From an uncultured Candidatus Saccharibacteria bacterium (GTDB lineage Bacteria; Patescibacteriota; Minisyncoccia; Phycocordibacterales; JACOZG01): DNA of 64,000 bases. Location: contig CAZYLF010000001.1 in assembly GCA_964648765.1 (NCBI GenBank), forward strand, positions 79,042 to 143,041, written 5' to 3'. A program made the translations under genes and the position numbers. This document shows positions 18,065 through 44,235 of this stretch, piece by piece. Below the pieces are notes generated by a model. The model was not told the origin of the DNA, did not search any database, and saw only the letters and a program-made list of their open reading frames with translations. Within the stretch, counting starts at the first letter, position 1; every line of letters starts with the position of its first letter.

Positions 18065-18289
18065 TTACTTGCTTCGGCGTGCTAAAAACTTTTCATGAGC
18101 GCGGCGTTTAGAAACTAGTTTTAAAAGCCCACGTCGTGAATGCTCATCCTTTTTATTTTTCTTTAAATGTTTGGTGAGCTCGTCAATTCTTTCTGAAATC
18201 ATAGCCACTTGCACAGCCGAAGAGCCGGTATCCTTTTCGTGGATCTGGCTTTTCTTAATAATTGTCTGTTTTTTCTTGGTTGACAGCAT
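18065..18289 (-). CDS. rpsO: 30S ribosomal protein S15
   Basis: [44 protein letters not shown] matches the S15 consensus. Confidence 0.9.
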
Positions 18290-18333: not shown

Positions 18334-18366
18334 TAAAAAAAGAAAACCCGAGCTCCAGACGGGTTT
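18334..18366 (-). terminator. intrinsic terminator after the purA-like gene (minus strand)
   Basis: Minus strand reads aacccgtctggagctcgggtt followed by ttctttttttaat. Confidence 0.6.
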
Positions 18367-18394
18367 TCCGTTAGAGTTCGGGTTGAATCATTTT

Positions 18395-19750
18395 CTACAC
18401 GACATTTTTATCTTCCGAAGTCGGGCCATACGACCGGTAACCGACCGGACTCTCGCAGACACTGGCGACATATTCTTCAAGTTCTTGTGCACTATTTATG
18501 AATCCTGTTCCGCCACCACTTGCTCTCATTAAGAGAGCAGTCATATCTGACTGATGTTTAAGTGTCGGATCAAACTTGATTGGTAGTTCTCCAATCACTT
18601 GACCTGAAATCGGATCAGTATAGTGGTCACAGAACTCTAATCGAGTTAGCCGCCCAAAGACATCCTCATGGGTGACTGCAATTTTTGTAAGTGGTGTCAC
18701 CTTTTTAACGCAGGCGGCCGCGTACCTAAGTAACACTCCATCCAAGTGACCGAAACGAAATTTTCCTTGCCACTCTCCTTTGGTGTTATGTTCCTGAGGT
18801 GAGAGGTACTTTTCTTGGCCCTCTGTTTCAGTGGGGAAGGGGCCGGCTCCATGGCGGGTGCCATAAGCTCTGGTGATCCCTATTGTTTCTACTCCGCCCG
18901 CGAAACCATTTTCCTCAAGAATTATCAGGGCGTTTGCGGGTGTGGTTGTGCTCCAGGTAGTGTGCGGGTGAAAACCGAACCACTCATCGAGGAGTACACC
19001 TTGCGCTCCTTCAAACACAACAGGACCTGAATTAAACATCATTTTCACCACTGCTTCCCCGATGATGTTTAAGTGCTTTGATAGTTCGAAATAAGTCTGA
19101 GCTATCAACGTAGGGTGCCCTGGCCCCATCAAGAGATCAGTTTCAGCCATTAAATCAGTGGTGTTCATCTGCTCTGGAGAGAAGCCCATTAATAGCAGCT
19201 CCGCCCTTTTTCTTTCTTGAATGGCGGTGAGGATCTTGGTTACGTGTTTTTTGTTTGATAGATCACCAGCATAGATGACTTCATCTGGGCGATTTACTAA
19301 ATCGGTTGCCGTTTCACCAATCCCCTTACCGCAAGAGCCATGTCTTCCGTTACCCCTCACCCATTCCCGTATACGATTACTGGCCACATGAATGGGAGTG
19401 ATCACCGGAGCTCGATAGTCAATAAAATGCCTACCCATCACGGAGCCTCCGATTTTTCTCGATAGAACATTTGCTTCGTCGGCCAGTGCAACTGGATCCC
19501 ACAACATGAAACGGGAGATTAATGTTTGAACCCCATCAATAAAGGTGCCACTGCCAAATTGTGCGAAGGTGTGGTGTTTGCCACTCCCCGAGACGACATT
19601 ATGAGCTGCCTGGGAGCCACCGTTATAACGAACAACTAGTTTAGCCCCATGGTGACGGCATAAAAAATCCGTCATCGTCCCTTTTCCCTCATCTCCAAAG
19701 CCTAAGCCAACTATGATGTGGGCGGCATATTTTGCCTTACATTTGCTCAT
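18395..19750 (-). CDS. adenylosuccinate synthetase family protein (divergent PurA-like)
   Basis: GDEGKGT P-loop variant, VVRYNGGSQAAHNVV, FEGAQGVLLD, TRAYGTRHGAGPFPTE. All align by eye with PurA blocks. Several key positions differ (see findings). Confidence 0.8.
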   Translation of the reverse strand: MSKCKAKYAAHIIVGLGFGDEGKGTMTDFLCRHHGAKLVVRYNGGSQAAHNVVSGSGKHHTFAQFGSGTFIDGVQTLISRFMLWDPVALADEANVLSRKIGGSVMGRHFIDYRAPVITPIHVASNRIREWVRGNGRHGSCGKGIGETATDLVNRPDEVIYAGDLSNKKHVTKILTAIQERKRAELLLMGFSPEQMNTTDLMAETDLLMGPGHPTLIAQTYFELSKHLNIIGEAVVKMMFNSGPVVFEGAQGVLLDEWFGFHPHTTWSTTTPANALIILEENGFAGGVETIGITRAYGTRHGAGPFPTETEGQEKYLSPQEHNTKGEWQGKFRFGHLDGVLLRYAAACVKKVTPLTKIAVTHEDVFGRLTRLEFCDHYTDPISGQVIGELPIKFDPTLKHQSDMTALLMRASGGGTGFINSAQELEEYVASVCESPVGYRSYGPTSEDKNVV

Positions 19751-19769
19751 TTTTATACCCTTTCCACAA

Positions 19770-19807
19770 ATAAAAAAGAACTTAACCAGATTCCTCTGGT
19801 TAAGTTC
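19770..19807 (-). terminator. intrinsic terminator between the vWA gene and the purA-like gene (possibly also a leader terminator)
   Basis: Minus strand reads gaacttaaccagaggaatctggttaagttc followed by ttttttatttg. Only about 20 nt separate it from the purA-like SD/ATG. Confidence 0.55.
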
Positions 19808-19848
19808 TATACTACTTACTTTAATTTGTCAAGTGCAAAGCTAAACTT

Positions 19849-20895
19849 CTAGCGTTTGCGACCTTGGGAACCACCATTTCTGGTAGTTACCACTGCGGAG
19901 GAACTGGCGGCCGTTGCTAGGGCTCCACCACCCACTGGCATGATTGCCTTGGTGGCTGCTGCAGCCGATTGGGCACCGGGCGCCCCCTTCTGCTTCAAGA
20001 TCTCCTCGATCTCGTCGCCATCGACGCCCTGTGTCCGAGCGATGGTCATCACCATGGTGGCAATGATCGCTTCAGTCTCCGGGATTTCGAGGATGCGCTC
20101 AGGATCCTCTCCTGCTGCGCGGAAGAGGTCCTGCCACATCTTGGTGATTGATCGGTCCTTGCCATGTAGAGTGTGGCCTGGTCGGATCACAAACACGTGG
20201 TAGCGGGTGGCCGCTTCTTTGAGCGATTCAAGCATCGTCACTGTCTTCTCGAGATGGTCACCAAAAACTGCCTTGGCGACTTCAGGTGAAGTGCCGTTGA
20301 CCTTGGGGTCACCGGCTCCATAGAAGGGCTCCTCATCACCAATGATGAAGAGGAAGCCCTTCGTGCCATCGCGCTCGAAGCACTCCAGTCGAGTGTGTCG
20401 AGCGGCGGCGTAGAGCGGCAGGTGATAAGCCTCACCCCTGTTGCCTCCCCCTTGATGGGGAATGACCATCTCATTCAAAGCGGTGATGAGCTCTTCTGCC
20501 CCTGTTTCGAACTGGCTCATCTGAAACGCGGCATCTGGTGGTACGGCGTGCTCATCATCATGTTGCATGAACATGATGTTAGGATGGTCGCTGATACCTT
20601 GTTCAGTCAGCATCGTCATCAATGTTGGTAGCGACTTTTGCAAGTCATAGGGCACATCTTCCATCGACCCGGTACCGTCCATGCTCACCACCACAGGTGT
20701 GGCATCATTAAAGCCCGGGGCAAAGCACGACTCCCGCACCCCATTTTTGAGTTGCTTGGGGTCGAGAATGTTTGCCAAGTTAGAGTAAACACCAGTTGCT
20801 CGGGCTTGAGTGGCCCTCGCGAACGTCTGGCCGGTATCTTGCAGCTTACTGACGGCGGCCTTGTACTTAAGTGACTCAAAATTACTACCTCCCAT
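19849..20895 (-). CDS. von Willebrand factor A domain protein (TerY-like)
   Basis: MIDAS-like VVVSMDGTGSM ... FLFIIGDEEP. Track start is GTG at 20940; SD plus ATG at 20895. GC-rich. Confidence 0.6.
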   Translation of the reverse strand: MGGSNFESLKYKAAVSKLQDTGQTFARATQARATGVYSNLANILDPKQLKNGVRESCFAPGFNDATPVVVSMDGTGSMEDVPYDLQKSLPTLMTMLTEQGISDHPNIMFMQHDDEHAVPPDAAFQMSQFETGAEELITALNEMVIPHQGGGNRGEAYHLPLYAAARHTRLECFERDGTKGFLFIIGDEEPFYGAGDPKVNGTSPEVAKAVFGDHLEKTVTMLESLKEAATRYHVFVIRPGHTLHGKDRSITKMWQDLFRAAGEDPERILEIPETEAIIATMVMTIARTQGVDGDEIEEILKQKGAPGAQSAAAATKAIMPVGGGALATAASSSAVVTTRNGGSQGRKR

Positions 20896-20953
20896 GCTCC
20901 ACATCCTTTCATGATTGTGGGTGAGTGGTCTAATCGCCACACCGTGTGGCTAT

Positions 20954-22126
20954 TTAGACCGGACTCATTTCCAGATTTACGAACTTCCTCGAACCAAACA
21001 CTCGTTTGGCAATGCCTCTGAACTCCTCATAAGCCACTGCTGCGTTCTTTGGCCGAAGCCTAATTTTGGGTTGCAAACAACGGTTTAAAAAGTCTTTGAT
21101 CGGTTCCTCTACTGTGCTTGGCAAGTCACCAGATCCTGGTTCTCCGCCAAGTAGATAAACCATGCACCAAGCTGACATATAAATATCAGCTGATGGTGTT
21201 GGTGACCCTCTCCCACCTAAAATCTCAGCGGGAAAAAAGTTTTTGAAGCGTTCGTCCACGTAGGGCAGAGATTGATTTTTTCCGGATAGGCACGAGGCCG
21301 TCCAGTCAATGATCTTGCCACTGTGACTCTCGGTGTGGATCAATATGTGGTTCGGGGTTATTGCGGCGTGTACCACCCCCGACAAGTGAGCCAAGGTTAG
21401 TCCCTCAAGGGTACGATTCCAGATAAAGCACATTTGTCGGGTGTTTATCCCCGTCGGATGTTTGGCCCGGATTTCCTCTAGGTTGAACCAGCCAGCATTT
21501 AAGCCAGATGGTTCAGTGAAGAGGTTTACTACTCGGTGCCCTTGCCCCCCATTATCTTTCAGTTTGACCGACTCAGTGAGGCTTGGGATTCGCGCTAAAA
21601 ATTTGCGCGCACTCTCCGTGCCTTCCGGATCGGTTGCTAACTTTTTAACTTTGGCTTGCATGGCTTTGATCGCCTGAACCTCGCGCTCCATTAGATCGTT
21701 ATCTTTTGGACTGTGAGGGACTCGGGCAATTATCGGTATGGTTTGATTCTCCTTATTTTGCATTATGGCGGAGAAAATACCGCAGGTGCCCCCTTCTCTG
21801 ATTAGTTCCACCAATACGTAAGTACCTTTTTTGGTTTTAAACATTGGCGGACCAATTGGATCAGCTTGTGGTTTAACCGCTAGATTGCCGTAAATGCCTT
21901 GGGCGAATTTGAGTTTGGCTAGTCCCCACAGCTCATTAAGCCGTTTGGAAGCAGTTTCCCCCAGCTCCTTTCCCTCGTCGGTTTGCTGTCGGTCTGGGTG
22001 GACCAACTTACTTAACTTTAGGTAGGTCTTTTCCGCCTCTTCCTGGCTACTTTTTAAGCCAAAAATCTCTTCGGGTTGTTTTGCCCGCTTCAGCTTATTA
22101 AGGACCGATATAAACTCCTTTTCCAT
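20954..22126 (-). CDS. J-domain (HPD) protein fused to a protein-kinase-like (possibly pseudokinase) domain
   Basis: N-terminal YLKLSKLVHPDR, a J-domain-like HPD motif. Kinase-like glycine loop EGGTCGIFSA. HAAITPNHILI sits where HRD is expected, DWT where DFG is expected. C-lobe motif SADIYMSAWCMVYLL. Confidence 0.5.
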   Translation of the reverse strand: MEKEFISVLNKLKRAKQPEEIFGLKSSQEEAEKTYLKLSKLVHPDRQQTDEGKELGETASKRLNELWGLAKLKFAQGIYGNLAVKPQADPIGPPMFKTKKGTYVLVELIREGGTCGIFSAIMQNKENQTIPIIARVPHSPKDNDLMEREVQAIKAMQAKVKKLATDPEGTESARKFLARIPSLTESVKLKDNGGQGHRVVNLFTEPSGLNAGWFNLEEIRAKHPTGINTRQMCFIWNRTLEGLTLAHLSGVVHAAITPNHILIHTESHSGKIIDWTASCLSGKNQSLPYVDERFKNFFPAEILGGRGSPTPSADIYMSAWCMVYLLGGEPGSGDLPSTVEEPIKDFLNRCLQPKIRLRPKNAAVAYEEFRGIAKRVFGSRKFVNLEMSPV

Positions 22127-22220
22127 TGTTTAGTTCCTCCATTTGTAAAAGAACCTGATATCCTTTGCCAGTCTACATTTTTATAACTTTTTGTCAAGTA
22201 TAGTGTATAATGTTTAAAGT

Positions 22221-23102
22221 ATGAGTTTATCTAAACTAAAAAATGAGTTTTTGGAGTATTTGGAGATTGAGAAGGGGCGGAGTTTGAAAACGGTGGCTAA
22301 TTATGACCGTTATCTGCTGCGCTTTTTTGAATTTAGCCAAGTTAAGGAGCCAAAATCGCTCGATGATGAGATGTTGCGCAAATATCGCCTGTGGCTCAAT
22401 CGCCTGCCAGCACCCGAAGGCAACCTTAAAAAAAATACCCAAAATTATCACTTAATTGCCTTGCGGTCCTTCTTAAAATACTTAACCAAACGTGGTGTAA
22501 CCACGGCGCTCTCCTCTACTGACATTGAGCTAGCTAAAACTGGTGAGCGAGAACTTGATTTAATTGAGCCAGACGAGCTCGATCGCCTGCTGGCCGCGCC
22601 TAAAAGTAAGGATGTATGGGCTTTGCGCGATAAAGCGTTGCTCGAGCTCCTCTTCTCTACTGGTTTGCGCGTGTCTGAACTTGTGGCTTTAAATCGCGAC
22701 AGTATAGATATGAAGCGTGATGATTTCTCTATTAGAGGTAAGGGCGGCAAGGTGCGCGTGGTCTTCCTCTCCCCCCTCGCAAAAGATACAATCCAACAAT
22801 ATTTAAATAAACGCGATGATCCTGAAGAACCGCTTTTTGTGAGTCAAAAACTAACCAGATTAACCGCGCGGAGCATTGAGCGCTTGATAAAACAGTATGC
22901 GATCAAGGCTGGGATAACGCGCAAGGTCACGCCGCACGTGATTCGTCACAGTTTTGCCACAGATTTGCTCCGTAATGGTGCTGATTTACGTTCGGTGCAA
23001 ATGATGCTTGGGCACGCCAATATCTCAACCACTCAAGTGTACACTCACGTTACCGATCGCGAACTCAAACGCATCCACGACAAATTCCATAGGAGGAAAT
23101 AA
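22221..23102 (+). CDS. xerC: tyrosine site-specific recombinase, XerC/XerD family
   Basis: GLRVSELVALNRDSID ... HVIRHSFATDLLRNGADLRSVQMMLGHANISTTQVYTHV, including the R-H-R-Y catalytic residues. Confidence 0.85.
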   Translation: MSLSKLKNEFLEYLEIEKGRSLKTVANYDRYLLRFFEFSQVKEPKSLDDEMLRKYRLWLNRLPAPEGNLKKNTQNYHLIALRSFLKYLTKRGVTTALSSTDIELAKTGERELDLIEPDELDRLLAAPKSKDVWALRDKALLELLFSTGLRVSELVALNRDSIDMKRDDFSIRGKGGKVRVVFLSPLAKDTIQQYLNKRDDPEEPLFVSQKLTRLTARSIERLIKQYAIKAGITRKVTPHVIRHSFATDLLRNGADLRSVQMMLGHANISTTQVYTHVTDRELKRIHDKFHRRK

Positions 23103-37623: not shown

Positions 37624-37703
37624 TTAAATTATTCTAGCCTAGATTTTGCCGTGTTGCTAATTATCTGTTATATTAGCGAGGCACCGGACAGATTCGCTCC
37701 CGT

Positions 37704-37775
37704 GGTGAAATGGATATCACAACGGTCTTCGGAACCGTTATTGGGGGTTCGAATCCCTCCGGGAGCACAGCGACG
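37704..37775 (+). tRNA. tRNA-Arg (anticodon TCG)
   Basis: Manually folded: 7-bp acceptor GCTCCCG/CGGGAGC, D-stem GTGA/TCAC, anticodon stem ACGGT/ACCGT, loop CTTCGGA, T-loop TTCGAAT. Confidence 0.8.
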
Positions 37776-37806
37776 AAGGGATTCGAGAATCCCCGAGGTA
37801 GCGAAT

Positions 37807-37877
37807 GCGGATATCGTTTAGTGGTAGGACACGTCCTTGCCAAGGATGAGGTGGGAGTTCGATTCTCCCTATCCGCA
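37807..37877 (+). tRNA. tRNA-Gly (anticodon GCC)
   Basis: Acceptor GCGGATA/TATCCGC, anticodon loop TTGCCAA, T-loop TTCGATT. Confidence 0.8.
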
Positions 37878-38003
37878 CACAATATGTACCTTGTCTCATT
37901 ATTTCCATCAGACAGTCCGTTATAAACCCTTAAAACTGTGGATAACTCTGGGGACAATGGGGATAAAAGACAGTAAAAGTCGTCTTATATGGCTTAAAAT
38001 CGT

Positions 38004-38387
38004 ATGTCCAAGACAGAAAAGCAGCTGACAGGTGATGTTGGGGAAAACCTAGCAGCTATGTTTCTTATGAAACATAATTTCACCATTATTGGCCGTAATT
38101 ACCGTAAAAAGTGGGGTGAGATTGATGTCATTGCTAAGAAGGGGAATGAGATTAGATTTGTGGAAGTGAAGACTGTGATCCGAGATTTTATTAAAGAAGG
38201 GGATTATGAGGCGTCAGATAATGTGCATCCGTGGAAGCTTAAGAGACTTTCACGAGCGATTCAGACATATTTGTTAGAAAATAAAATTAATGAAGATGAA
38301 ATTGATTGGCAGCTTGATGTAATCTCTGTATATTTAAACGGGCGAGGGGAGACTTTAAAAATTGATTGGTTAGAGGATGTGTTTTAA
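38004..38387 (+). CDS. YraN/UPF0102 family endonuclease-like protein
   Basis: GENLAAMFLMKHNFTIIGRNYRKKWGEIDVIAKKGNEIRFVEVKT matches the UPF0102 pattern. Confidence 0.7.
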   Translation: MSKTEKQLTGDVGENLAAMFLMKHNFTIIGRNYRKKWGEIDVIAKKGNEIRFVEVKTVIRDFIKEGDYEASDNVHPWKLKRLSRAIQTYLLENKINEDEIDWQLDVISVYLNGRGETLKIDWLEDVF

Positions 38388-38468
38388 GCTTGACTTTTGT
38401 GTTGTTTCTGCTTTAATGTGAAAAGCGAATTTTGTTGTTTGAAATGGTAAATTTGAAAGGAGAAAATC

Positions 38469-39425
38469 GTGGCCGAAAGTCGGAAAGAACGCCTCAAAGA
38501 TCTAGTTTTGTTGCCATTCTGGGTGCTCTTATTCTTGCTTATTCTAATTATTTATCCATTTTGGCTTTTGTTTACCAGAGTGGTGAACTGGGTGGGATTA
38601 AGCAATTTACGCACAATGAAAGGTGATGTGCAGACTCCGGTGGTTTATTTTCTGAATCAAAACACCAAACGGATGGTGATTCTGGTAGGGGTGGTGCACC
38701 TCGGCGAGAAGTCGTATTACGCGCAAATCCGGGAACTTCTGGCCTCACTCGACGGCTTCACTGTTCTTTATGAATGGATTAAAGCCTTAAGTGATGAGGA
38801 AAAGTCGAAATTAACTGAGAAGTCCGAAAAAATCGTAAAGGAGTTTGAGAGCTATGGTAAATCCTCACGGATGATTTGTGAGATTCTGGGCCTACAGCCG
38901 CAGAAAGAGGGTTTGCCAATTGAAGCAAAGTGGATCAACACTGACGTAAGAGCCTTTGAATTGATCAATTACTTTGTGAATCACAATCTCAATTTCATGA
39001 AAGATATCGGCAAAATTGAGAAACTTCTAGGTGCGGAATCTGACCAAGTGCTTGATAAGTGGCTACTGAATGGGACCTTCAAGCGAATCATTGTTGTTAT
39101 GGTGTTTGCGGGGTTTTATAGTAAACTCACCAGAAAGCGCCGTTTGAAGCATGATTTTTTGATTAACCAGCGGAATGTTGTTGCAGTTGAAGGTATCCGC
39201 GAGCATTTGGCCAAAGGCAATGTGGTGGCAATATGGGGAGCAGGGCATTTGCCGGGGATTGCCAAAATGCTTAAGCAAGATGGCTTCAGTGTGGTGGGCA
39301 AAGAATGGTACACGGCGTATAAAGCAAAAGATTGCTCGTTTTGGGATGTTTTTGCCGATCGTAGTGTGGTGGCGGTGGAGCGTTTGGCGGCAATTTCTGA
39401 TCAGATAACGAGAATAAAAAAGTAA
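38469..39425 (+). CDS. TraB/GumN family protein
   Basis: GTG start with GGAG SD. N-terminal TM. Motifs LVGVVHLGEKS and GAGHLPGIAKMLKQDGFSV are typical of TraB/GumN. Confidence 0.6.
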   Translation: MAESRKERLKDLVLLPFWVLLFLLILIIYPFWLLFTRVVNWVGLSNLRTMKGDVQTPVVYFLNQNTKRMVILVGVVHLGEKSYYAQIRELLASLDGFTVLYEWIKALSDEEKSKLTEKSEKIVKEFESYGKSSRMICEILGLQPQKEGLPIEAKWINTDVRAFELINYFVNHNLNFMKDIGKIEKLLGAESDQVLDKWLLNGTFKRIIVVMVFAGFYSKLTRKRRLKHDFLINQRNVVAVEGIREHLAKGNVVAIWGAGHLPGIAKMLKQDGFSVVGKEWYTAYKAKDCSFWDVFADRSVVAVERLAAISDQITRIKK

Positions 39426-39449
39426 CACAGTTTGCTTAGGCAAACACCG

Positions 39450-39483
39450 ACCCCCTCCGTAAAAAAGAGGGGGTTTGATTTTA
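39450..39483 (+). terminator. putative intrinsic terminator
   Basis: accccctc-cgtaaaaaa-gagggggt followed by ttgatttt. Confidence 0.45.
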
Positions 39484-39484
39484 A

Positions 39485-39556
39485 TCGGAGCGCCGGGATT
39501 TGAACCCGGAGTCACACGAACCCGAATCGTGCATGTTACCGTTACACTACGCTCCG
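39485..39556 (-). tRNA. tRNA-Pro (anticodon CGG)
   Basis: Minus-strand fold: acceptor CGGAGCG/CGCTCCG, anticodon stem CACGA/TCGTG with loop TTCGGGT, T-loop TTCAAAT. Confidence 0.8.
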
Positions 39557-39677
39557 TAACTCTTGGGTAATTTAACATAATTAAAATTAATTTGTAGTAA
39601 TCCACCTCATTTGCTAGGGTTAAAATTGGAAAATAACAAGCTCGAAGGCTTGTTTGTGGAAATTAAGGAGGACTGTA

Positions 39678-40292
39678 ATGGCGAAGAAAAAGGTTAGATC
39701 GGGAATTCAGAGGCGGGTCAAAGCATCTGCAAGCAGAAATTTGGTTGATGAAATCAACTCTAAGCTTGAAAGTGTAAGACGTCAGCTTGTGATGGAGATT
39801 ATCCCCGACACCTCTGGGAACGAACACACACTCTTAAATTTGGGGGTAATAGGGGATGGGTGTGTTCAGAATATAAATAAAGGGCACTTCTTTTTTCCAT
39901 TTTTAGGAAATAGATATGTAGCCGCGATGTGCTTTTACGGGAAGGCATCTGCGTATGACGTAAGGGCATATAATTTTAACAACCCCTTTTCCCCTAACCC
40001 TCTTAACGATCTTTTGTCTGGCAATTGGTCTATGCGAGTCGGCGCTCAGCACTTTCTTTCTGAAAATTTTGGATCAAATGGGCGTATGTTTTTGGGAAAC
40101 AAGGCTGTTTTGGATTGGTTCTTTGAGAGAGCGCTTTTACACCCCATGGCTAAGCCATATGAGGTTCTTAAGTTTGCAACTAATGTCTTTAGTGCAGAAA
40201 AGATAGTCGTTTCAGGTTATCAACACTACCTGAGAGAAGTAATCCAACAAAGGCTCGATGGTGTGGGCCAAATAGTAGAGCTTTTGGGTTAG
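39678..40292 (+). CDS. hypothetical protein (MAKK family A, paralog 1)
   Basis: AAGGAGG plus ATG. C-terminal GNKAVLDWFFERALLHPMAKPYEVLKFA resembles the 40416 gene. Own terminator. Confidence 0.5.
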   Translation: MAKKKVRSGIQRRVKASASRNLVDEINSKLESVRRQLVMEIIPDTSGNEHTLLNLGVIGDGCVQNINKGHFFFPFLGNRYVAAMCFYGKASAYDVRAYNFNNPFSPNPLNDLLSGNWSMRVGAQHFLSENFGSNGRMFLGNKAVLDWFFERALLHPMAKPYEVLKFATNVFSAEKIVVSGYQHYLREVIQQRLDGVGQIVELLG

Positions 40293-40314
40293 GTTGATTT
40301 CTAGAAGCTGATCT

Positions 40315-40345
40315 GGCCCCGTCGCTTGTGACGGGGCCTTTTTCT
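40315..40345 (+). terminator. intrinsic terminator
   Basis: ggccccgtcgcttgtgacggggcc followed by tttttc. Confidence 0.65.
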
Positions 40346-40415
40346 TGCTAGTTTGAGGTTTGAAAACTCGAGCCAAGGTGGCTTGTTAGGATCTTTGATT
40401 TGAAGGGAGAAAACG

Positions 40416-41180
40416 ATGGCAAAGAAGGTTATGAAGGTGGAGCAGAAGAAAAGCGGCGGTTTGGTTCAGCGTATTAACGAGGTGCTGAAGGATCACAATG
40501 GCCAATTGGCGATGGTGATCAAGCATGAAACTGCTTCGCCCCAGAAAAGTGGCGGGGTAAGAAGAAATTGTGAAGAACCGACCATGGATCTCGATATCGA
40601 GCCGAGGATCAAAACGACGCTTCGTGTTGGGAGGGTATGCAAGGGGTTGCCAGTAGAAAAGCTTAGGGAAGATGGAATTTTTTCCATGCCGGCTTTTGGC
40701 GGTATCGTGGTATGTAAACGTGCTAGCGAAAAAGATCAATTTTCCGTTGAGTTTTTAAAGGGGGAAGGATATTTTTTTATCCCCGCGCAATCGGTAATAC
40801 CGCTTAAGAAGAAGGCCCCTGAGGATGTGTCTGGCGAAGAAATCTTGGATATTCTCAAAAGCCGCGAGCATGGAATGGGTTTGATTGGAGATAAGGCAGT
40901 TATTGAATGGCTCCTTGGTGATTATCTGGATAATCCAGAGTCAAACGCACCTGAGGTACTTGCGCAGGCCATCAAGCACCTTAAGATTGATAAAGAAATT
41001 GGTCTGCCGAATTTTTTTGTGGGACGACACGAAGCGGCAGAAGCAAGGTTTCAACAGGTGGAGGAGGCAATTTACCAGTTGGTGCCGCAAAAGCTTCGCG
41101 AGCTAAGAAGTTCGATCGAGCATGAAAAGAAGCAGTTAGAAACCTTAATCGAATTGTCTACTGAAAGGAGGGGAGGATGA
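40416..41180 (+). CDS. hypothetical protein (MAKK family A, paralog 2)
   Basis: GGAG SD plus ATG. GDKAVIEWLLGDYLDNPESNAPEVLAQA resembles the 39678 gene. Confidence 0.5.
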   Translation: MAKKVMKVEQKKSGGLVQRINEVLKDHNGQLAMVIKHETASPQKSGGVRRNCEEPTMDLDIEPRIKTTLRVGRVCKGLPVEKLREDGIFSMPAFGGIVVCKRASEKDQFSVEFLKGEGYFFIPAQSVIPLKKKAPEDVSGEEILDILKSREHGMGLIGDKAVIEWLLGDYLDNPESNAPEVLAQAIKHLKIDKEIGLPNFFVGRHEAAEARFQQVEEAIYQLVPQKLRELRSSIEHEKKQLETLIELSTERRGG

Positions 41181-41842
41181 ATCTGAAACCGTGGAAAAAG
41201 AAGGAACCGGAGAATCTTTCTCCGGAAGAGGCGAGGTTTAAGAGGGGATTTGATCGGTTGTTTGGCTTTGGTCTGCCAGAGTATGTGCAGAAATCTCTCG
41301 AGCGCCAAAAATCTTTGGTGATCGCCCATGCTTTGAAGTTGCAGACCACCGACTTTTATTCAGTAGTACCGCTTAGTGACGTAAATTTGCCAACGCAGCT
41401 TAGTTGGCTGGCTGGTAAAAAGGCACCGAGTTTACCTCATTATCGTCGTTGGCCAAAATGTCGATTCGGCAGTTTGCCAGACTTGCCGTGGTTTATTTTT
41501 GGTGTGAAGGTCACTAATTGTTTGGATCACAGCGTGGAGGACGTGGCGCGACACTTAGTAGGCGAAGGGGAGGAGATCCTGACTTTGCCAGAGGTGATTG
41601 CCTTTTTGCTTGAGGTGAAAAAGACGCAAGCCGAAGCCCCAAGTGAGCCTCACCCCATAAAATTGGCGCTCTCCACATTTCATCTTGTTGGTAATATGGA
41701 TGGCAACAATTGGCCACTCATCACTTGTGATAGTGCGGGAGTGGCGCTGGTGTCGAGACAAGATTCTGCGCTTATCTCAACAACCAGACCCAACAATTAT
41801 CTCCTTTCAACTCAAGTCAGAAAGTGTTTTGTTTTGGAATAG
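41177..41842 (+). CDS. hypothetical protein
   Basis: ATGA overlap with the upstream gene. 221 aa. Followed by a terminator. Confidence 0.5.
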   Translation: MNLKPWKKKEPENLSPEEARFKRGFDRLFGFGLPEYVQKSLERQKSLVIAHALKLQTTDFYSVVPLSDVNLPTQLSWLAGKKAPSLPHYRRWPKCRFGSLPDLPWFIFGVKVTNCLDHSVEDVARHLVGEGEEILTLPEVIAFLLEVKKTQAEAPSEPHPIKLALSTFHLVGNMDGNNWPLITCDSAGVALVSRQDSALISTTRPNNYLLSTQVRKCFVLE

Positions 41843-41849
41843 TTCACTC

Positions 41850-41884
41850 GCCCCGCGCCGTAAATGGTGCGGGGCTTTTTTTTA
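41850..41884 (+). terminator. intrinsic terminator
   Basis: gccccgcgccgtaaatggtgcggggc followed by ttttttttt. Confidence 0.7.
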
Positions 41885-41906
41885 TGCTAGATTAACTGGG
41901 CAATAA

Positions 41907-41977
41907 CGGAGCGTAGTATAGCGGTAGTATGCATGCTTTGGGAGCATGTGGCCCGGGTTCGATTCCCGGCGCTCCGA
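41907..41977 (+). tRNA. tRNA-Pro (anticodon TGG)
   Basis: Acceptor CGGAGCG/CGCTCCG, anticodon stem CATGC/GCATG with loop TTTGGGA, T-loop TTCGATT. Confidence 0.8.
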
Positions 41978-42074
41978 AGATTAGGTTTTCAAATTTGCGT
42001 GAGTTTATTTTTTGGCGTACCATATATCCCAACGTGTTCTTTGGAGGTTGGAGTCAGTTTTTTATGGAGGATTT

Positions 42075-42374
42075 ATGAAAACGGCCCCATGTTTGGCTAG
42101 TGATCTCTCGGTGTATCCAGAGTCGTCGTTGCGCGAGATTGGCCACTGGTTGGACCAATCTATTGGAGCGATGGAAAGTTTAAGTAAATTAAGGAGCACC
42201 ATCCCGTCTTTTTTTGGTTCTGATCGGCGCCTGACGAGCGCTTCCAACGCTTTTGTTTCTAGTGTTGGCGCGTTACTCCTAACTCTTCACGAAATGAAGG
42301 ACCTGCGCTCCAAAATTACTGATGAAATCAGGAAAAAGCGCGAAGTGCGTGAGCCTTCTCTCATTTCTGCATGA
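42075..42374 (+). CDS. small hypothetical protein
   Basis: GGAGG plus ATG at 42075 inside the track ORF. 99 aa. Terminator downstream. Confidence 0.4.
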   Translation: MKTAPCLASDLSVYPESSLREIGHWLDQSIGAMESLSKLRSTIPSFFGSDRRLTSASNAFVSSVGALLLTLHEMKDLRSKITDEIRKKREVREPSLISA

Positions 42375-42398
42375 AGAAAAAGCTGGAAAAAACAACTA

Positions 42399-42439
42399 GC
42401 GCCAGTCCCGCACCGTTGCGGGACTGGCGCACTTTTTTG
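42399..42439 (+). terminator. intrinsic terminator
   Basis: gcgccagtcccgcaccgttgcgggactggcgc followed by acttttttg. Confidence 0.7.
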
Positions 42440-42510
42440 TCTGTGCTAAAATCAAATCAGTCTGATCTTTGTGAGACAGGCTATTTTATACCAAATAAGG
42501 AGGATGATCG

Positions 42511-42876
42511 ATGGGTCGATCCCGGCGTCGGCGTGGATATGGTGGCAATAACAATGGTCAATCTAATGGGGGAAAGGCAAATAAACCCCAAGCAGCGCCT
42601 ATCCAAACAAGCAACGAACAATCAAAGCAGCCCCCGTCAATTTATTGTGGTATTTGCGGAAAAGCCCACGATAACGGCTTTCCAATTTGGGAGTTGCCAT
42701 GTGGTCGTCGATTTAACATCAGGGTAGAAATTCCAGCCTGCGACTTTTGCTTAGACTCAAAGCATTTCAAAGACTTTCTTGGTCTTCGTGATGCAAATGG
42801 TCCTAAGACTACGTCGGATTACCTCACTCTCCTTGCTCGTTACATAGAATTGTATCAAAAAAGACGTACATCCTAA
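42511..42876 (+). CDS. small Cys-rich (zinc-ribbon-like) protein with Arg/Gly-rich N-terminus
   Basis: AAGGAGG plus ATG. CGICGK ... CGRRF ... CDFC. Preferred over the overlapping track ORF 42371..42727. Confidence 0.45.
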   Translation: MGRSRRRRGYGGNNNGQSNGGKANKPQAAPIQTSNEQSKQPPSIYCGICGKAHDNGFPIWELPCGRRFNIRVEIPACDFCLDSKHFKDFLGLRDANGPKTTSDYLTLLARYIELYQKRRTS

Positions 42877-42898
42877 GTTTCAAAAAAAGTAATTAAAC

Positions 42899-42940
42899 TT
42901 GCCCTGACCATCATACGGTTGGGGCAACTTTTTATTTTAA
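42899..42940 (+). terminator. putative intrinsic terminator (imperfect stem)
   Basis: ttgccc ... gggcaa followed by ctttttatttt. Confidence 0.4.
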
Positions 42941-42944
42941 ATTT

Positions 42945-43015
42945 TCGGGCTGCCGAGAATTGAACTCGGTCTACATGCACCCCATGCATGCGTACTGCCG
43001 GTATACTACAGCCCG
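42945..43015 (-). tRNA. tRNA-Pro (anticodon GGG)
   Basis: Minus-strand fold: acceptor CGGGCTG/CAGCCCG, anticodon stem CATGC/GCATG with loop ATGGGGT, T-loop TTCAATT. Confidence 0.8.
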
Positions 43016-43127
43016 TAGCAACAACCATGTATCATACTTCTGATAACGAGGTTTGCAACTTTTTGTGCTTTAGAGTAGTTTTCATTATTAGTGAGGACAA
43101 ATAAGCTTTTTGAAAGGAGGCAAGCGG

Positions 43128-43640
43128 ATGAGCGGAGCACAGGTTGAAAGCCGTTTCAAAGTATTTGAAGAAATTGAAAACGCTTTGGCTGGCAAAATCG
43201 GTGAGCGAGTGCTGGTGGTGAAGAGGGGAATCCATCATCAAAAACGCGCAAGCGATAACACGGTGGTGCACTCGTGGCATGTTGAGGAATGGTTTATAGG
43301 CAGATTGAATGCGAACATTTTACTTACCGAGCCGGACTGTGGAATTATCTTTGTGCCGGTGGAGAAGCACGTGCGGGCAAAATTTCCGTACGGCAATCAG
43401 AAGGTAGTGTGTGATGTTACCACCTCACCTATTCGTCTTAATGTGTTTGATGACGATGGAGCGATTGAAACGGTGATTCCGCCGCGAGAAGCTTTTGATC
43501 TCAGTGTGCGTAATGCGCCGCCACGCTCTGTGCAAGTGGTGATCTCAGACGATCCGATCAGAAGTTTTGTGGCAAACAAGGGTAAAATGGCTGCACACAT
43601 GTATTTTTGTCTCAATGCACAACTTCATCGTAGTGGGTAA
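43128..43640 (+). CDS. hypothetical protein
   Basis: AAAGGAGG plus ATG at 43128. 170 aa. Own terminator. Confidence 0.5.
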   Translation: MSGAQVESRFKVFEEIENALAGKIGERVLVVKRGIHHQKRASDNTVVHSWHVEEWFIGRLNANILLTEPDCGIIFVPVEKHVRAKFPYGNQKVVCDVTTSPIRLNVFDDDGAIETVIPPREAFDLSVRNAPPRSVQVVISDDPIRSFVANKGKMAAHMYFCLNAQLHRSG

Positions 43641-43654
43641 GATATCAGTTTTTC

Positions 43655-43683
43655 TGCCGGGCGCTTCGCGCCCGGCTTTTTTC
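43655..43683 (+). terminator. intrinsic terminator
   Basis: gccgggcgcttcgcgcccggc followed by ttttttc. Confidence 0.7.
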
Positions 43684-43700
43684 TTGCTACAATTATATGA

Positions 43701-44123
43701 ATGGTATTTTTTCTCCAAATCTTGATTGCGTTGGTGGCGCTTTGTGGCTTATCAATCGCTCTTTATATTTCTCATAAAAAAGTTCATGGTGGCAAAATGG
43801 TTTGCATGCTTAATTCAGATTGCGAAGTGGTGGTCACAAGTAATTATTCTAAGTTTTTAGGAATCCCCGTTGAGCGTTTAGGTATTGCTTATTACTCTAT
43901 TGTGGCGGCAAGTTATTTGGTTTTTGCTTTCGCACCTCAACTCTCACATAACTTTTATTCAGTAATTTTGCTTTGGGCCACGGTGCTCGCTTTTTTATTT
44001 TCGATTTATCTTACCTACATTCAGATGGCTAAGATTAAACAGTGGTGCACTTGGTGTCTCACCTCAGCAATCATTTGCACCGTAATCTTCCTTGCAGTTC
44101 TTAAATTAATCAGTATATTTTAG
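43701..44123 (+). CDS. vitamin K epoxide reductase (VKOR) family membrane protein
   Basis: Four hydrophobic helices. Loop cysteines (CMLNSDC). CTWC redox motif in the last helix region. VKOR-like arrangement. Confidence 0.65.
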   Translation: MVFFLQILIALVALCGLSIALYISHKKVHGGKMVCMLNSDCEVVVTSNYSKFLGIPVERLGIAYYSIVAASYLVFAFAPQLSHNFYSVILLWATVLAFLFSIYLTYIQMAKIKQWCTWCLTSAIICTVIFLAVLKLISIF

Positions 44124-44161
44124 CTACAGCGGGCTTGCCCGCCGTAGCGTTAGCAAAAGCG

Positions 44162-44235
44162 GGATTAGTTTATCGGTAAAATAACAGTTTTCCAAACTGT
44201 GGTGACCGGTTCGACTCCGGTATCCCGCACCAAAA
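44162..44235 (+). tRNA. tRNA-Gly (anticodon TCC), CCA encoded
   Basis: Acceptor GCGGGAT/ATCCCGC, anticodon stem ACAGT/ACTGT with loop TTTCCAA, T-loop TTCGACT, 3' ACCA. Confidence 0.8.

Follow-up and report, generated by a model that had tools for sequence, protein, structure and literature searches.

The open reading frame (ORF) that ends a three-gene cassette in the 64-kb stretch of DNA analysed here (hereafter the window) probably encodes an active PurA-family ligase of a distinct and widespread clade. Judged by its sequence, the protein is a member of a large PurA-like clade and is neither an ordinary, AMP-making adenylosuccinate synthetase (PurA) nor a phage PurZ. The reading that we favour as a whole, with moderate confidence, is that this clade of ligases, encoded together with its cassette partners, may perform purine-nucleotide chemistry linked to NAD+ and ADP-ribose. 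The cassette is transcribed in the order kinase-like gene, vWA/MIDAS gene, PurA-like gene:

20954..22126 (-): putative J-domain (HPD at aa 43-45) fused to a protein-kinase-like domain without the catalytic Asp
19849..20895 (-): vWA-fold protein, 348 aa; MIDAS-like site intact, C-terminal tail disordered
18395..19750 (-): PurA-like ORF, 451 aa, intact, with its ATG at 19750

An earlier note on this DNA had assigned the protein to the adenylosuccinate synthetase family, which is borne out by profile, fold and motifs. PF00709 matches aa 12-398 with 212.2 bits (E=1.4e-62; cutoff 27), the P-loop GDxGKG and the counterparts of Asp13 and His41 are present, and Foldseek aligns the AF2 model (pLDDT 92) with E. 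coli PurA at TM 0.77-0.80, other bacterial and eukaryotic PurA structures being matched as well. The protein is 29% identical to E. coli PurA (1ade; phmmer, 2.5e-31) and is matched end to end by PHROG 1211 (254 bits). Its scores lie below every NCBIfam PurA equivalog cutoff and at less than half of their values (176.3 bits against 402 for NF002223, 158.1 against 395.55 for TIGR00184). Together with the clade-conserved site changes described below, these scores agree with the note's proposal of a specialised PurA paralogue, which it did not claim to be PurZ. A second purA, whose presence the note had left to be checked, was not found in the window by tblastn with E. coli PurA as query.

The roles of the ligand-contact residues of PurA come from published work on the E. 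coli enzyme. The PurA-like protein was mapped onto that enzyme by HMMER and, together with 120 homologues, by MAFFT, and its key residues are the following:

G19-D20-E21-G22-K23-G24-T25: P-loop, D20 and K23 kept in the homologues
H50: catalytic His, equivalent to E. coli H41
Q47, C140, W266, H300, W327-Q328, F331: clade-specific residues
T360-H361-E362-D363 and S440-x-G442-P443 (here S440-Y-G-P): guanine contacts

The residues D20, K23 and H50 are invariant among the 120 homologues, the Asp13 equivalent is Asp in this protein and in 120/120, and the equivalents of Gln224 and Thr239 are also present. The retained P-loop Lys, Asp13 and His41 equivalents, Gln224, guanine-specific Asp and S-x-G-P make up the set used by PurA for gamma-phosphate transfer; because this core is present, the enzyme is probably GTP-dependent and would activate the 6-oxo group as PurA does. 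Around the core, three changes that had been read by eye in the earlier note were reproduced by both aligners. GDEGKGK of E. coli has become GDEGKGT (aa 19-25), a clade-conserved change in which K18 is Thr or Ser in 112 of the 120 homologues. QGGHNAGH has become NGGSQAAH (aa 43-50), Q34 being replaced by Asn and N38 by Gln in 119/120 each, while the catalytic H41 is kept in all. GRRRRTGWLD corresponds to GK-FRFGHLD (aa 329-337), with one residue lost and a single Arg of the four retained. The mapping adds T129 to Cys, S240 to Trp, V273 to His, T300 to Trp and T301 to Gln. Where PurA binds aspartate through Thr300, Thr301, Arg303-305 and Arg131, this protein has W327, Q328, K330, a gap, F331 and K142, and the clade consensus at the aspartate loop is W-Q-G-x-F-R; from the IMP 5'-phosphate set (Asn38, Thr129, Thr239, Arg143') Thr239 alone remains, R143 not being conserved in the clade. 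Since the changes at both sites are conserved across a large clade, they are not noise.

The guanine site tells a different story from the one first proposed. The note had read the TKLD motif as TKIA, with Asp changed to Ala, which proves to be an error of register: TKIA occupies aa 355-358, five residues upstream of the true counterpart, and in both alignments E. coli T330-K331-L332-D333 falls on T360-H361-E362-D363 (nt 18673-18662). The Asp is retained there and D333 is kept in 120/120 homologues, K331 alone changing, to His or Asn (His in this protein), and S-x-G-P is invariant or nearly so; phiVC8 PurZ has Asn at the aligned D333 position. The suggested switch from GTP to ATP is thus unsupported, because it rested on the misplaced motif and because D363 and S-x-G-P are kept. 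The other part of that proposal, altered substrate specificity, agrees with the clade-wide changes in the substrate site, the Arg cluster among them, which is truly altered.

Compared with canonical PurA (1ade, 1cg0-1cg4), the clade shares the long-form fold, the P-loop, Asp13, His41, Gln224, Thr239, Asp333 and S414-x-G-P, but it has replaced T300, T301, R303-R305 and R131 as well as N38, T129, R143 and V273, which surround the IMP 5'-phosphate and ribose; moreover, canonical PurA stands alone, whereas the PurA-like gene is almost always accompanied by genes for a vWA protein and a pseudokinase. These features bear on the possibility, which we regard as unlikely, that the protein is a true adenylosuccinate synthetase (IMP + L-Asp + GTP) serving as a divergent auxiliary source of AMP, with the vWA and kinase-like proteins as its regulators. 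Phages and some bacteria would in that case boost their adenylate supply, for instance for NAD resynthesis. The retained fold, catalytic Asp and His, Gln224 and GTP contacts are as expected of such an enzyme, phage databases label the protein PurA-like, and the NAD salvage genes that adjoin some cassettes use ATP. Against it stand the conserved replacement of T300, T301 and three of the four Asp-loop Arg, the loss of R131 and R143, equivalog scores of less than half the cutoffs, and the lack of an adenylosuccinate lyase gene among the recurrent neighbours of the cassette. Members of the clade are also found in Actinomycetota and Myxococcota, phyla that generally possess a canonical purA, so that the PurA-like gene would be a paralogue there. 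As the main reading, a housekeeping PurA was set aside on the equivalog scores, the lost aspartate site and the cassette context.

A PurZ-type enzyme, which would convert dGMP and Asp to N6-succino-2-amino-dAMP for 2-aminoadenine DNA, is the reading to which we give almost no weight. It draws on the name '2-aminooxy adenylosuccinate synthetase' given to relatives by PHROG 1211 and RefSeq, and on a weak match to the NCBIfam PurZ model NF038379, and PurZ and PurZ0 (6fm1, 7odx, 7vf6) are likewise specialised, phage-carried PurA-family paralogues with altered substrate pockets. That match, however, amounts to 42.1 bits where the cutoff is 300, the protein is 20% identical to phiVC8 PurZ, and the structural model aligns with PurZ at TM 0.57-0.60 (0.55-0.60 for PurZ and PurZ0 taken together), compared with 0.77-0.80 for PurA. 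PurZ has a short, archaeal-like architecture of ~340 aa, whereas the PurA-like clade is of the long form, and there is no DatZ, MazZ, DpoZ or DutZ partner beside the PurA-like gene. The N6-succino-2-amino-2'-deoxyadenylate synthases PurZ and PurZ0 are defined by the replacement of the catalytic Asp13 with Ser (or Gly), Ser being the residue in each of 147 phage PurZ sequences (PMC12884076). The PurA-like protein is not a PurZ, because its Asp13 is kept; its clade retains both Asp13 and Asp333.

The first gene of the cassette encodes a protein with matches to Pfam Pkinase (35.7 bits) and to PHROG 3043 'kinase' (5e-24). Its Pfam DnaJ score, 18.8 bits, is under the cutoff of 27.8, PF00226 is precomputed in several homologues, and HPD occurs in about 65-75% of the family. 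In comparison with DYRK2/3, the window copy has H-A-A-I-T-P-N-H for HRDxKxxN, DWT for DFG and Arg for the beta3 Lys. Across the family, Ala occupies the catalytic-Asp column in 113/130, Asp not being among the five commonest residues listed, and His occupies the catalytic-loop Asn column in 115/130. Lacking the catalytic Asp and Asn of an active Hanks-type kinase, the protein is predicted to be a pseudokinase, and with its putative J-domain it may act as a nucleotide-binding or chaperone-recruiting regulator.

The mechanical ORF of the vWA gene extends to a GTG at 20940. The N-terminus of its product is conserved as M-G-G/S-G/S-S-W/Y-S, an MG start being found in 129 of 147 cluster representatives of the family. 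The MIDAS-like motif consists of D-x-T-G-S, then E, then D-E, and its D, T and S show little or no variation among 155 vWA sequences. No Pfam family matches the protein; PHROG 2971 does (6e-28), and Foldseek relates the AF2 model (pLDDT 83) to integrin I and beta-I domains and to the SpaC vWA domain, as expected of a vWA fold with a MIDAS. Such a protein would be a metal-dependent binder of a peptide or other ligand. Comparative genomics has described TerY-P triads of a vWA protein, a Ser/Thr kinase and a PP2C phosphatase. The cassette may be analogous to these in coupling a vWA/MIDAS protein to a Hanks-type kinase fold within a compact conflict or stress operon, but it has no phosphatase, its kinase fold has no catalytic Asp and is joined to a putative J-domain, and its third partner is a PurA-like ligase.

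This cassette context, absent from the earlier note, is the most informative fact about the gene. Of the 162 loci, 154 have a vWA homologue; in 131 its stop immediately precedes the PurA-like gene, and the order kinase-vWA-PurA is kept in 117; upstream sequence ends early in 7 of the 8 loci without a vWA match. In most loci outside Patescibacteria the vWA gene abuts or overlaps the PurA-like gene, a sign of co-transcription. All three window genes match PHROGs. The PurA-like clade has at least 597 matches in species-representative genomes and is found on 303 viral contigs and in 202 mycobacteriophage records, and the vWA family comprises 1346 clusters at E<=1e-10; the cassette spans ~600 species genomes from many bacterial phyla and ~300 viral contigs, including large phages, as well as Bxz1-type mycobacteriophages. 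In the Bxz1-type Mycobacterium phage LRRHood, gp256 is 37% identical to the window protein over its full length and has the same signature residues, and gp253-gp256 follow the order kinase, vWA-type hypothetical protein, PurA-like. The mycobacteriophage copies differ in that an extra 88-aa ORF (gp255) separates the vWA gene from the PurA-like gene, and they have neither a terminator hairpin in that spacer nor an NrtR neighbour. Two clustering passes over the cassette loci revealed no universal fourth gene; antisense ORF overlap in high-GC loci confounded the first pass, in which NrtR was missed, and NrtR was recovered by targeted phmmer. Full-text literature searches returned no description of the cassette, and we could not find an earlier report of an operon of J-domain pseudokinase, MIDAS protein and PurA-like ligase. 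In the window, which resembles a piece of a Patescibacteria chromosome, the cassette stands alone as the most GC-rich 3.7 kb, with anomalous GC content, next to a XerC-like recombinase gene, rpsO and a NYN-domain gene. Exact look-up gave no name for any of its three proteins.

What surrounds the cassette elsewhere suggests a role linked to NAD or ADP-ribose, because NrtR, NadV and Nudix genes are among its neighbours and a Nudix fusion occurs in Kitasatospora. An NrtR-like gene (NUDIX + NrtR_WHD) adjoins the cassette in 43 of the 162 loci, a set that takes in all Actinomycetota loci with sufficient upstream flank and nine viral contigs; such genes lie beside the cassette in Actinomycetota and Patescibacteria. 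NrtR regulators respond to ADP-ribose. Nampt is found in 13 loci, and in several phages and Saccharibacteria genes for NadV (Nampt) and for NadM/Nudix proteins interleave with or adjoin the cassette, Nampt and NMNAT genes being present in the related loci L005, L010, L042, L092, L103 and others. The gene order is NrtR, vWA, Nudix protein, Nampt, PurA-like, kinase in the viral locus L103, and PncB, NadE, NrtR, NADAR, PncA, KptA, vWA, PurA-like in a metagenome locus. The Kitasatospora fusion (626 aa) joins the PurA-like protein to a NUDIX domain, and its Zn-ribbon-plus-Nudix part aligns to NudC; the resemblance is weak, and inspection by eye reveals no clear NADH-specific motif.

The NAD link is lineage-specific. 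No NrtR, Nampt, PncB, NadE or Nudix gene was detected in the 64-kb window by tblastn with queries from relatives, NrtR was not found beside mycobacteriophage cassettes, and the flanks in Myxococcota, Chloroflexota and Verrucomicrobiota hold unrelated housekeeping genes. NrtR adjacency could also be mere co-regulation. The phage NAD+ pathways NARP1, NARP2 and NARP3 are comparable in being phage-carried and in that related loci hold the cassette among Nampt and NMNAT/Nudix-type genes, components of NARP2; the window, from which an NMNAT gene is absent, is not a NARP2-like locus. As described in the accessible part of PMC13464706, which defines NARP3 as PnuC + NadR, these pathways have no PurA-like, vWA or kinase-like component. 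The nrtX-nrtY genes, for which no function was given (Rodionov 2008), could not be equated with the cassette.

A role in anti-phage defence or abortive infection appears rather improbable to us. The vWA protein and pseudokinase would then sense infection, and the PurA-like protein would be an effector that drains GTP or IMP or makes a toxic or signalling nucleotide. The patchy spread over phyla, a self-contained cassette with variable flanks and the anomalous GC content in the window would fit such a role; the kinase-like domain weakly and partially matches PADLOC MkoA, PD-T4-6 and mad6 and also NCBIfam MAD6, and NrtR-type Nudix regulators have been predicted to sense ADPr in conflict systems (PMC9503650). 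Yet the PurA-like and vWA proteins match no model of PADLOC-DB 2.0, by which the cassette proteins form no known defence system, and the sampled bacterial flanks consist of housekeeping genes rather than defence islands. The cassette is, moreover, abundant in phage genomes, lytic Bxz1-type mycobacteriophages among them, where it can be interleaved with NAD salvage genes, which are known phage counter-defence functions.

According to the reading favoured here, a PurA-family ligase linked to NAD+/ADP-ribose, the enzyme would still activate a hypoxanthine-type (6-oxopurine) nucleotide with GTP but would couple to it an amine other than free L-aspartate, or accept a nucleotide whose 5' side extends beyond a monophosphate, or both. 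We infer substrate and amine donor solely from the PurA ligand-contact residues that are kept or lost. Ordinary IMP could still be the substrate, since Asp13 and Gln224 are kept, and a different loop could still bind aspartate. The cassette would not serve bulk AMP synthesis; its purine-nucleotide chemistry would be tied to NAD+/ADP-ribose turnover in stress or phage-host conflict. A more specific proposal, which we put forward as speculative and unlikely, is that of a new NAD+/ADP-ribose-linked nucleotide pathway, shared by bacteria and large phages, in which either a hypoxanthine nucleotide other than IMP is aminated at the expense of GTP, with IDP-ribose, a hypoxanthine dinucleotide and ITP as candidates, or the purine C6 is joined to a non-aspartate amine. 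In its boldest form, that amine would be the near-invariant N-terminal glycine of the vWA partner, the product an N6-linked adenylate-protein conjugate or an N6-modified adenylate signal, and the pseudokinase pocket its reader.

The one major surprise of the PurA family so far has been PurZ, with its 2-aminoadenine DNA. The present clade is no less widespread (~600 species genomes, large-phage contigs in the hundreds and >200 sequenced mycobacteriophages), combines a kept catalytic core with a conserved, remodelled acceptor site, and is tied to a J-domain pseudokinase/MIDAS operon; its recurrent NrtR, Nampt, Nudix and other NAD-gene neighbours place it in the NAD+ arena that now dominates work on phage-bacterium conflict. 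Were the product a new nucleotide or nucleotide-protein adduct, purine and NAD biochemistry would gain a new reaction, the propagated PurZ-type label of RefSeq and PHROGs would be corrected, and a conserved gene block would acquire a function in the Bxz1-type phages of M. smegmatis, which are well studied and easily manipulated. A non-aspartate amine or a non-IMP substrate would amount to chemistry undescribed for the PurA family.

Several candidate signals for expression of the cassette were found:

22170..22197 (-): sigma-70-like promoter TTGACA-16-TAGACT, 44 nt upstream of the kinase-like gene, 10/12 matches
19804..19832 (-): promoter-like element, TTGACA (19832-19827), 17-nt spacer, TAGAAC (19809-19804), read from the letters
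19767..19808 (-): intrinsic-terminator-like hairpin between the vWA and PurA-like genes, from pattern scan and folding
18335..18368 (-): terminator-like hairpin directly after the PurA-like stop, GAAAACCCG, 9-nt loop, CGGGTTTTC, T-run

The hairpin between the vWA and PurA-like genes lies 41 nt past the vWA stop codon and has the features of an intrinsic terminator, as the earlier note had proposed: the hairpin proper, 19808..19777(-), combines a 14-bp stem and a 4-nt GGAA loop with a following T-run (TTTTTTATTTG), and its folding z-score against shuffles is -4.0. The spacer matches no Rfam family (best match at chance level, E=0.77), and a riboswitch or known RNA was dismissed on that result. 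The TTGACA noticed just upstream of the hairpin lies at 19832..19827. To the two options first offered, read-through or a leader terminator, a third can be added: the -10-like hexamer TAGAAC overlaps the 5' arm of the hairpin, and a transcript begun at this putative promoter would not contain the hairpin. The hairpin, with the promoter-like element that overlaps it, insulates the PurA-like gene from the two genes upstream. The alternative that the hairpin terminates the kinase-vWA unit, or is an attenuator whose partial read-through lowers expression of the PurA-like gene, the TTGACA being there by chance, is a serious one that falls somewhat short of even odds. It gains from the strong stem and T-run, from -10-like hexamers that are poor and miss the scan criteria (TTGACA-N17-TAGAAC misses the strict -10 rule), and from the abutting or overlapping genes of most non-Patescibacteria loci. 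It is opposed by the occurrence of TTGACA and a 17-nt spacer directly before the hairpin in at least 4 independent loci whose hairpin sequences differ, and by the PurA-like gene's own Shine-Dalgarno (GGAAAGGG), which precedes the ATG at 19750, and own terminator-like hairpin downstream, whose 9-nt loop is above the limit of the pattern scan.

The intergenic hairpin recurs in Patescibacteria relatives: a similar hairpin and T-run of unrelated sequence occupies the same spacer in L005, L006, L010, L042, L058, L059 and L165-L169, and in L005, L006 and L042 TTGACA-N17 is followed at the same position by TAGAAC, CACAAT or TAAAAC. Upstream of the whole cassette, the element at 22170..22197 is its likely promoter, judged by the match to the consensus.

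The 451-aa product of the PurA-like gene in the window is encoded by a real ORF, one of three consecutive minus-strand genes that all match phage orthologous groups (PHROGs) and that lie among chromosomal genes.

Cassette genes and immediate flanks
22221-23102, plus strand: XerC-like tyrosine recombinase, on one flank of the cassette
20954-22126, minus strand: kinase-like gene, 390 aa, PHROG 3043 'kinase'
19849-20895, minus strand: middle (vWA) gene, 348 aa, PHROG 2971, unknown function
18395..19750, minus strand: PurA-like gene, 451 aa, PHROG 1211
18065-18289: rpsO, on the other flank

The PurA-like protein matches the Pfam adenylosuccinate synthetase family (PF00709, 212 bits, E=1.4e-62) and solved PurA structures (E ~1e-31), and it is 29% identical to E. 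coli PurA. Its AF2 model (pLDDT 92) superposes on long-form PurA structures with TM 0.77-0.80, on the archaeal short form with TM ~0.6, and on PurZ/PurZ0 with TM 0.55-0.60. The nearest homologues are found in Paceibacterota-type MAGs (46-55% identity), and the best annotated relatives are the 'PurA-like adenylosuccinate synthetases' of ~200 Bxz1-type mycobacteriophages. The protein is neither a canonical PurA, since its scores with the NCBIfam PurA equivalog models, 176 and 158 bits, fall well short of the cutoffs (402 and 396), nor a PurZ, since the PurZ model scores 42 bits against a cutoff of 300 and the equivalent of Asp13 is kept as Asp. Ser replaces this residue in all 147 phage PurZ sequences, according to a 2026 survey (PMC12884076).

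Active-site motifs were mapped with HMMER against E. coli PurA, and with MAFFT in the company of E. coli PurA, phiVC8 PurZ, one mycobacteriophage homologue, and 120 database homologues. Three of the four substitutions proposed in the earlier note hold throughout the clade: GDEGKGK to GDEGKGT (aa 19-25), QGGHNAGH to NGGSQAAH with retention of the catalytic His (aa 43-50), and GRRRRTGWLD to GK-FRFGHLD, in which one residue is deleted and a single Arg remains (aa 329-337). The fourth, TKLD to TKIA, was a register error, as the E. coli motif aligns to T360-H361-E362-D363, and TKIA occupies positions 355-358. The guanine-specificity Asp (D363) is invariant in 120/120 homologues, and within that motif only the Lys differs, being replaced by His or Asn. 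Asn38 of E. coli PurA, described in that note as an IMP O6 contact, is a contact for the IMP 5'-phosphate in the published work on the E. coli enzyme.

Active-site positions in the clade; the residue roles follow established E. coli PurA crystallography and mutagenesis
G19, D20, K23 (P-loop Gly, Asp, Lys): retained
His50 (E. coli H41): retained
Gln250 (E. coli Q224): retained
Thr265 (E. coli T239): retained
Asp363 (E. coli D333): retained
Ser440-x-Gly-Pro (E. coli S414 to P417): retained
E. coli K18: conserved replacement by T/S
E. coli Q34: conserved replacement by N
E. coli H37: conserved replacement by S/A
E. coli N38: conserved replacement by Q
E. coli T42: conserved replacement by N
E. 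coli T129: conserved replacement by C
E. coli R131: conserved replacement by K/M
E. coli R143: not conserved
E. coli S240: conserved replacement by W
E. coli V273: conserved replacement by H
E. coli T300: conserved replacement by W
E. coli T301: conserved replacement by Q
E. coli R303/R304: deleted/variable
E. coli R305: conserved replacement by F

Judging from these retained and replaced residues, the clade has an intact guanine pocket and intact machinery for phosphotransfer, and the positions that serve L-aspartate and the IMP 5'-phosphate/ribose in E. coli PurA are remodelled. Of the altered specificity suggested earlier, the substrate side is supported by the aspartate and IMP positions; a change of nucleotide from GTP to ATP is not supported, having rested on the misaligned TKLD motif. 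The enzyme would still use GTP to phosphorylate a 6-oxopurine nucleotide, but with a different amine and/or a larger 5' substituent on that nucleotide. Titles of PDB entries among the PurA matches name the K16Q, R143L, and R303L mutants.

The conservation of the cassette was assessed in 162 loci, for which 80 loci were fetched of at least 597 matches in species-representative genomes, and 80 viral loci of 303 viral-contig matches, many of them from contigs 100-500 kb long. The middle gene has a homologue in 154/162 loci, and seven of the eight loci without one are cut off upstream. In 131/162, the PurA-like gene directly follows the stop codon of this homologue on the same strand, and the full order kinase, middle gene, PurA-like is found in 117/162, the kinase gene being directly downstream instead in 10/162. 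Two clustering passes over the loci revealed no universal fourth gene. Among the matches listed, cassette hosts include Patescibacteria (Saccharibacteria, Paceibacterota), Chloroflexota, Myxococcota, Actinomycetota, Planctomycetota, and Verrucomicrobiota. In the mycobacteriophage LRRHood, gp253 (Ser/Thr kinase) is followed by gp254 (hypothetical), gp255, and gp256 (PurA-like); gp255 (L001 5732-5998) is an extra ORF of 88 aa without a Pfam match, which lies between the vWA and PurA-like genes of mycobacteriophages, and a large viral contig has a vWA/PurA-like spacer of equal length, 259 nt (L085 7733-7991). Several Patescibacteria loci and a single viral contig (L166 1918-3084; also L009, L042, L073, and L096) encode, immediately upstream of the kinase-like gene, a conserved protein of ~390-410 aa with no Pfam family.

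No Pfam family was found for the 348-aa middle protein, but its model (pLDDT 83) matches integrin I/beta-I and SpaC vWA domains, and across 155 sequences a MIDAS-like D-x-T-G-S, followed by E and then D-E, is invariant or almost so. A profile search returned 1346 vWA-family clusters at E<=1e-10, nearly all aligned from residue 1, and the N-terminus is M-G in 129/147 representatives (consensus MG(G/S)(G/S)S(W/Y)S). Some Patescibacteria members reach ~480 aa rather than ~340 aa through a region without a Pfam match (L166 4293-5732; L042 6456-7898). One 581-aa homologue (P0341) carries an intein-like insertion with C...HN|C boundaries right in front of the invariant (F)IIGDE MIDAS strand; functionally critical sites are where inteins tend to lie.

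The kinase-like protein begins with a J-domain signature (HPD at aa 43-45), for which the DnaJ match is below cutoff here and PF00226 is recorded in several homologues. In its kinase fold, HRDxKxxN reads H-A-A-I-T-P-N-H. The catalytic Asp column holds Ala in 113/130 family members, Asp not being among the five commonest residues listed, and the catalytic-loop Asn column holds His in 115/130; the protein is therefore a predicted pseudokinase. Residue 135 of the window protein is Arg where 114/130 members have the beta3 Lys, and Gly replaces the 'DFG' Asp in ~30% of members, so that nucleotide binding by the pseudokinase may not be universal.

In some lineages, the neighbours of the cassette suggest a recurrent link to NAD/ADP-ribose. 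In the gene lists of long contigs, the cassette adjoins an NrtR-type gene that combines NUDIX with an NrtR winged helix, or has one within a few kb along with PncB and NadE, and one metagenome locus reads PncB, NadE, NrtR, NADAR, PncA, KptA, vWA, PurA-like. NrtR regulators are ADP-ribose-responsive repressors of NAD genes (PMC2330246), and a role as ADPr sensors in conflict systems is predicted for related Nudix transcription factors (PMC9503650). Targeted phmmer searches located an NrtR-like gene in 43/162 loci, including most Patescibacteria loci and nine viral contigs; every Actinomycetota locus with sufficient upstream sequence has NrtR, kinase, vWA, and PurA-like genes in that order on one strand (e.g., L045). 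Nampt (NadV) is encoded in the flank of 13 loci (10 viral, 3 Saccharibacteria), and the genes are interleaved in a viral locus (L103) as NrtR, vWA, a 309-aa Nudix protein, Nampt, PurA-like, kinase. In three Kitasatospora loci (L045 7971-9851, L022, L080), a Zn-ribbon and a NUDIX domain are joined in frame to the C-terminus of the PurA-like protein (626 aa). Viral loci L092, L093, and L099 encode this Nudix type as a gene of its own, and both fused and stand-alone forms give weak alignments to NudC, an NADH pyrophosphatase, that span the Zn-ribbon and Nudix box. A 'nucleoside 2-deoxyribosyltransferase-like' (PF15891) protein also recurs near the cassette (L121 432-1664, three other viral loci, and L169 14868-15326). 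The NAD-gene link is absent from the sampled Myxococcota, Chloroflexota, and Verrucomicrobiota loci, the NrtR neighbour is absent in mycobacteriophages, and no NrtR, Nampt, PncB, NadE, or Nudix gene lies within the 64-kb window.

The frequent overlap of vWA stop and PurA-like start codons suggests a protein complex, in which the vWA and J-pseudokinase proteins might bind or regulate the PurA-like enzyme, and the pathway may couple purine chemistry with NAD/ADP-ribose during stress or in conflicts between phage and host. Taken as a whole, a GTP ligase with an altered acceptor, vWA and pseudokinase partners, and an NAD/ADP-ribose-linked role is somewhat more likely than not. Genuine AdSS activity with regulatory partners, in a protein that retains the phosphotransfer residues and has replaced those for aspartate, is unlikely, and a PurA-like defence effector, a role for which the predicted conflict-system ADPr sensors might be cited, is rather improbable. 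The phage NARP1-3 pathways of NAD+ reconstitution, as described, differ in having no PurA-like, vWA, or kinase-like component (PMC13464706).

The chances of a PurZ-type enzyme are very slim given the retained Asp13, even though RefSeq and PHROG 1211 label members '2-aminooxy adenylosuccinate synthetase' (NC_054722, NC_041993, etc.), the label of phiVC8 PurZ. As clade members keep Asp13, this label on the mycobacteriophage proteins looks like a propagated annotation unsupported by sequence. The gene family is already recorded as 'PurA-like' in phage annotation. Literature searches found no link between NrtR and adenylosuccinate synthetase and no description of the cassette; the distinct active site, obligatory partners, and NAD-linked neighbourhoods appear undescribed, and there is a realistic chance that the altered-acceptor ligase represents new chemistry.

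In most phyla, the vWA gene runs up to or into the PurA-like gene; in the Patescibacteria branch, a spacer of 60-175 nt separates them. In the window, this spacer harbors the terminator noticed earlier, with the TTGACA-like sequence just upstream of it.

Elements flanking the PurA-like gene
19832-19827, minus strand: TTGACA of a promoter-like element, then a 17-nt gap and TAGAAC, which overlaps the first stem bases
19808-19777, minus strand: terminator-like hairpin, 14-bp stem and GGAA loop, then TTTTTTATTTG
18368-18335, minus strand: second hairpin and T-run, read from the sequence

The first hairpin, 41 nt past the vWA stop codon and 26 nt ahead of the PurA-like ATG, folds much more strongly than shuffled sequence does (z = -4.0). 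Hairpins with T-runs, of unrelated sequence, occupy the corresponding spacers of L005, L006, L010, L042, L058, L059, and L165-L169, and a crude scan detected such sites in 13/45 vWA|PurA spacers versus 1/13 kinase|vWA spacers. The spacer has no Rfam family match. Promoter-like elements occur at the same place in relatives (TTGACA-N17-TAGAAC in L005, TTGACA-N17-CACAAT in L006, TTGACA-N17-TAAAAC in L042), but they are a lead rather than a finding because the -10-like hexamers fail the -10 rule of the scan tool. If the element is real, transcripts would start inside the 5' arm of the hairpin and be unable to form the terminator, and those of the kinase and vWA genes would end at the hairpin; the PurA-like gene would therefore be its own transcription unit, which the second hairpin would close.

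The flank with rpsO also holds ComM and genes of the NYN-domain and DksA/TraR types. Both strands of a 6.5-kb region (37696-44229) carry scattered tRNA genes, six in all, and an Rfam search of the window found no rRNA or other family besides them. No other 3.7-kb stretch of the window is as GC-rich as the cassette (18395-22126; 0.497 versus 0.448 +/- 0.022, with the vWA gene at 0.559), an excess compatible with horizontal acquisition.
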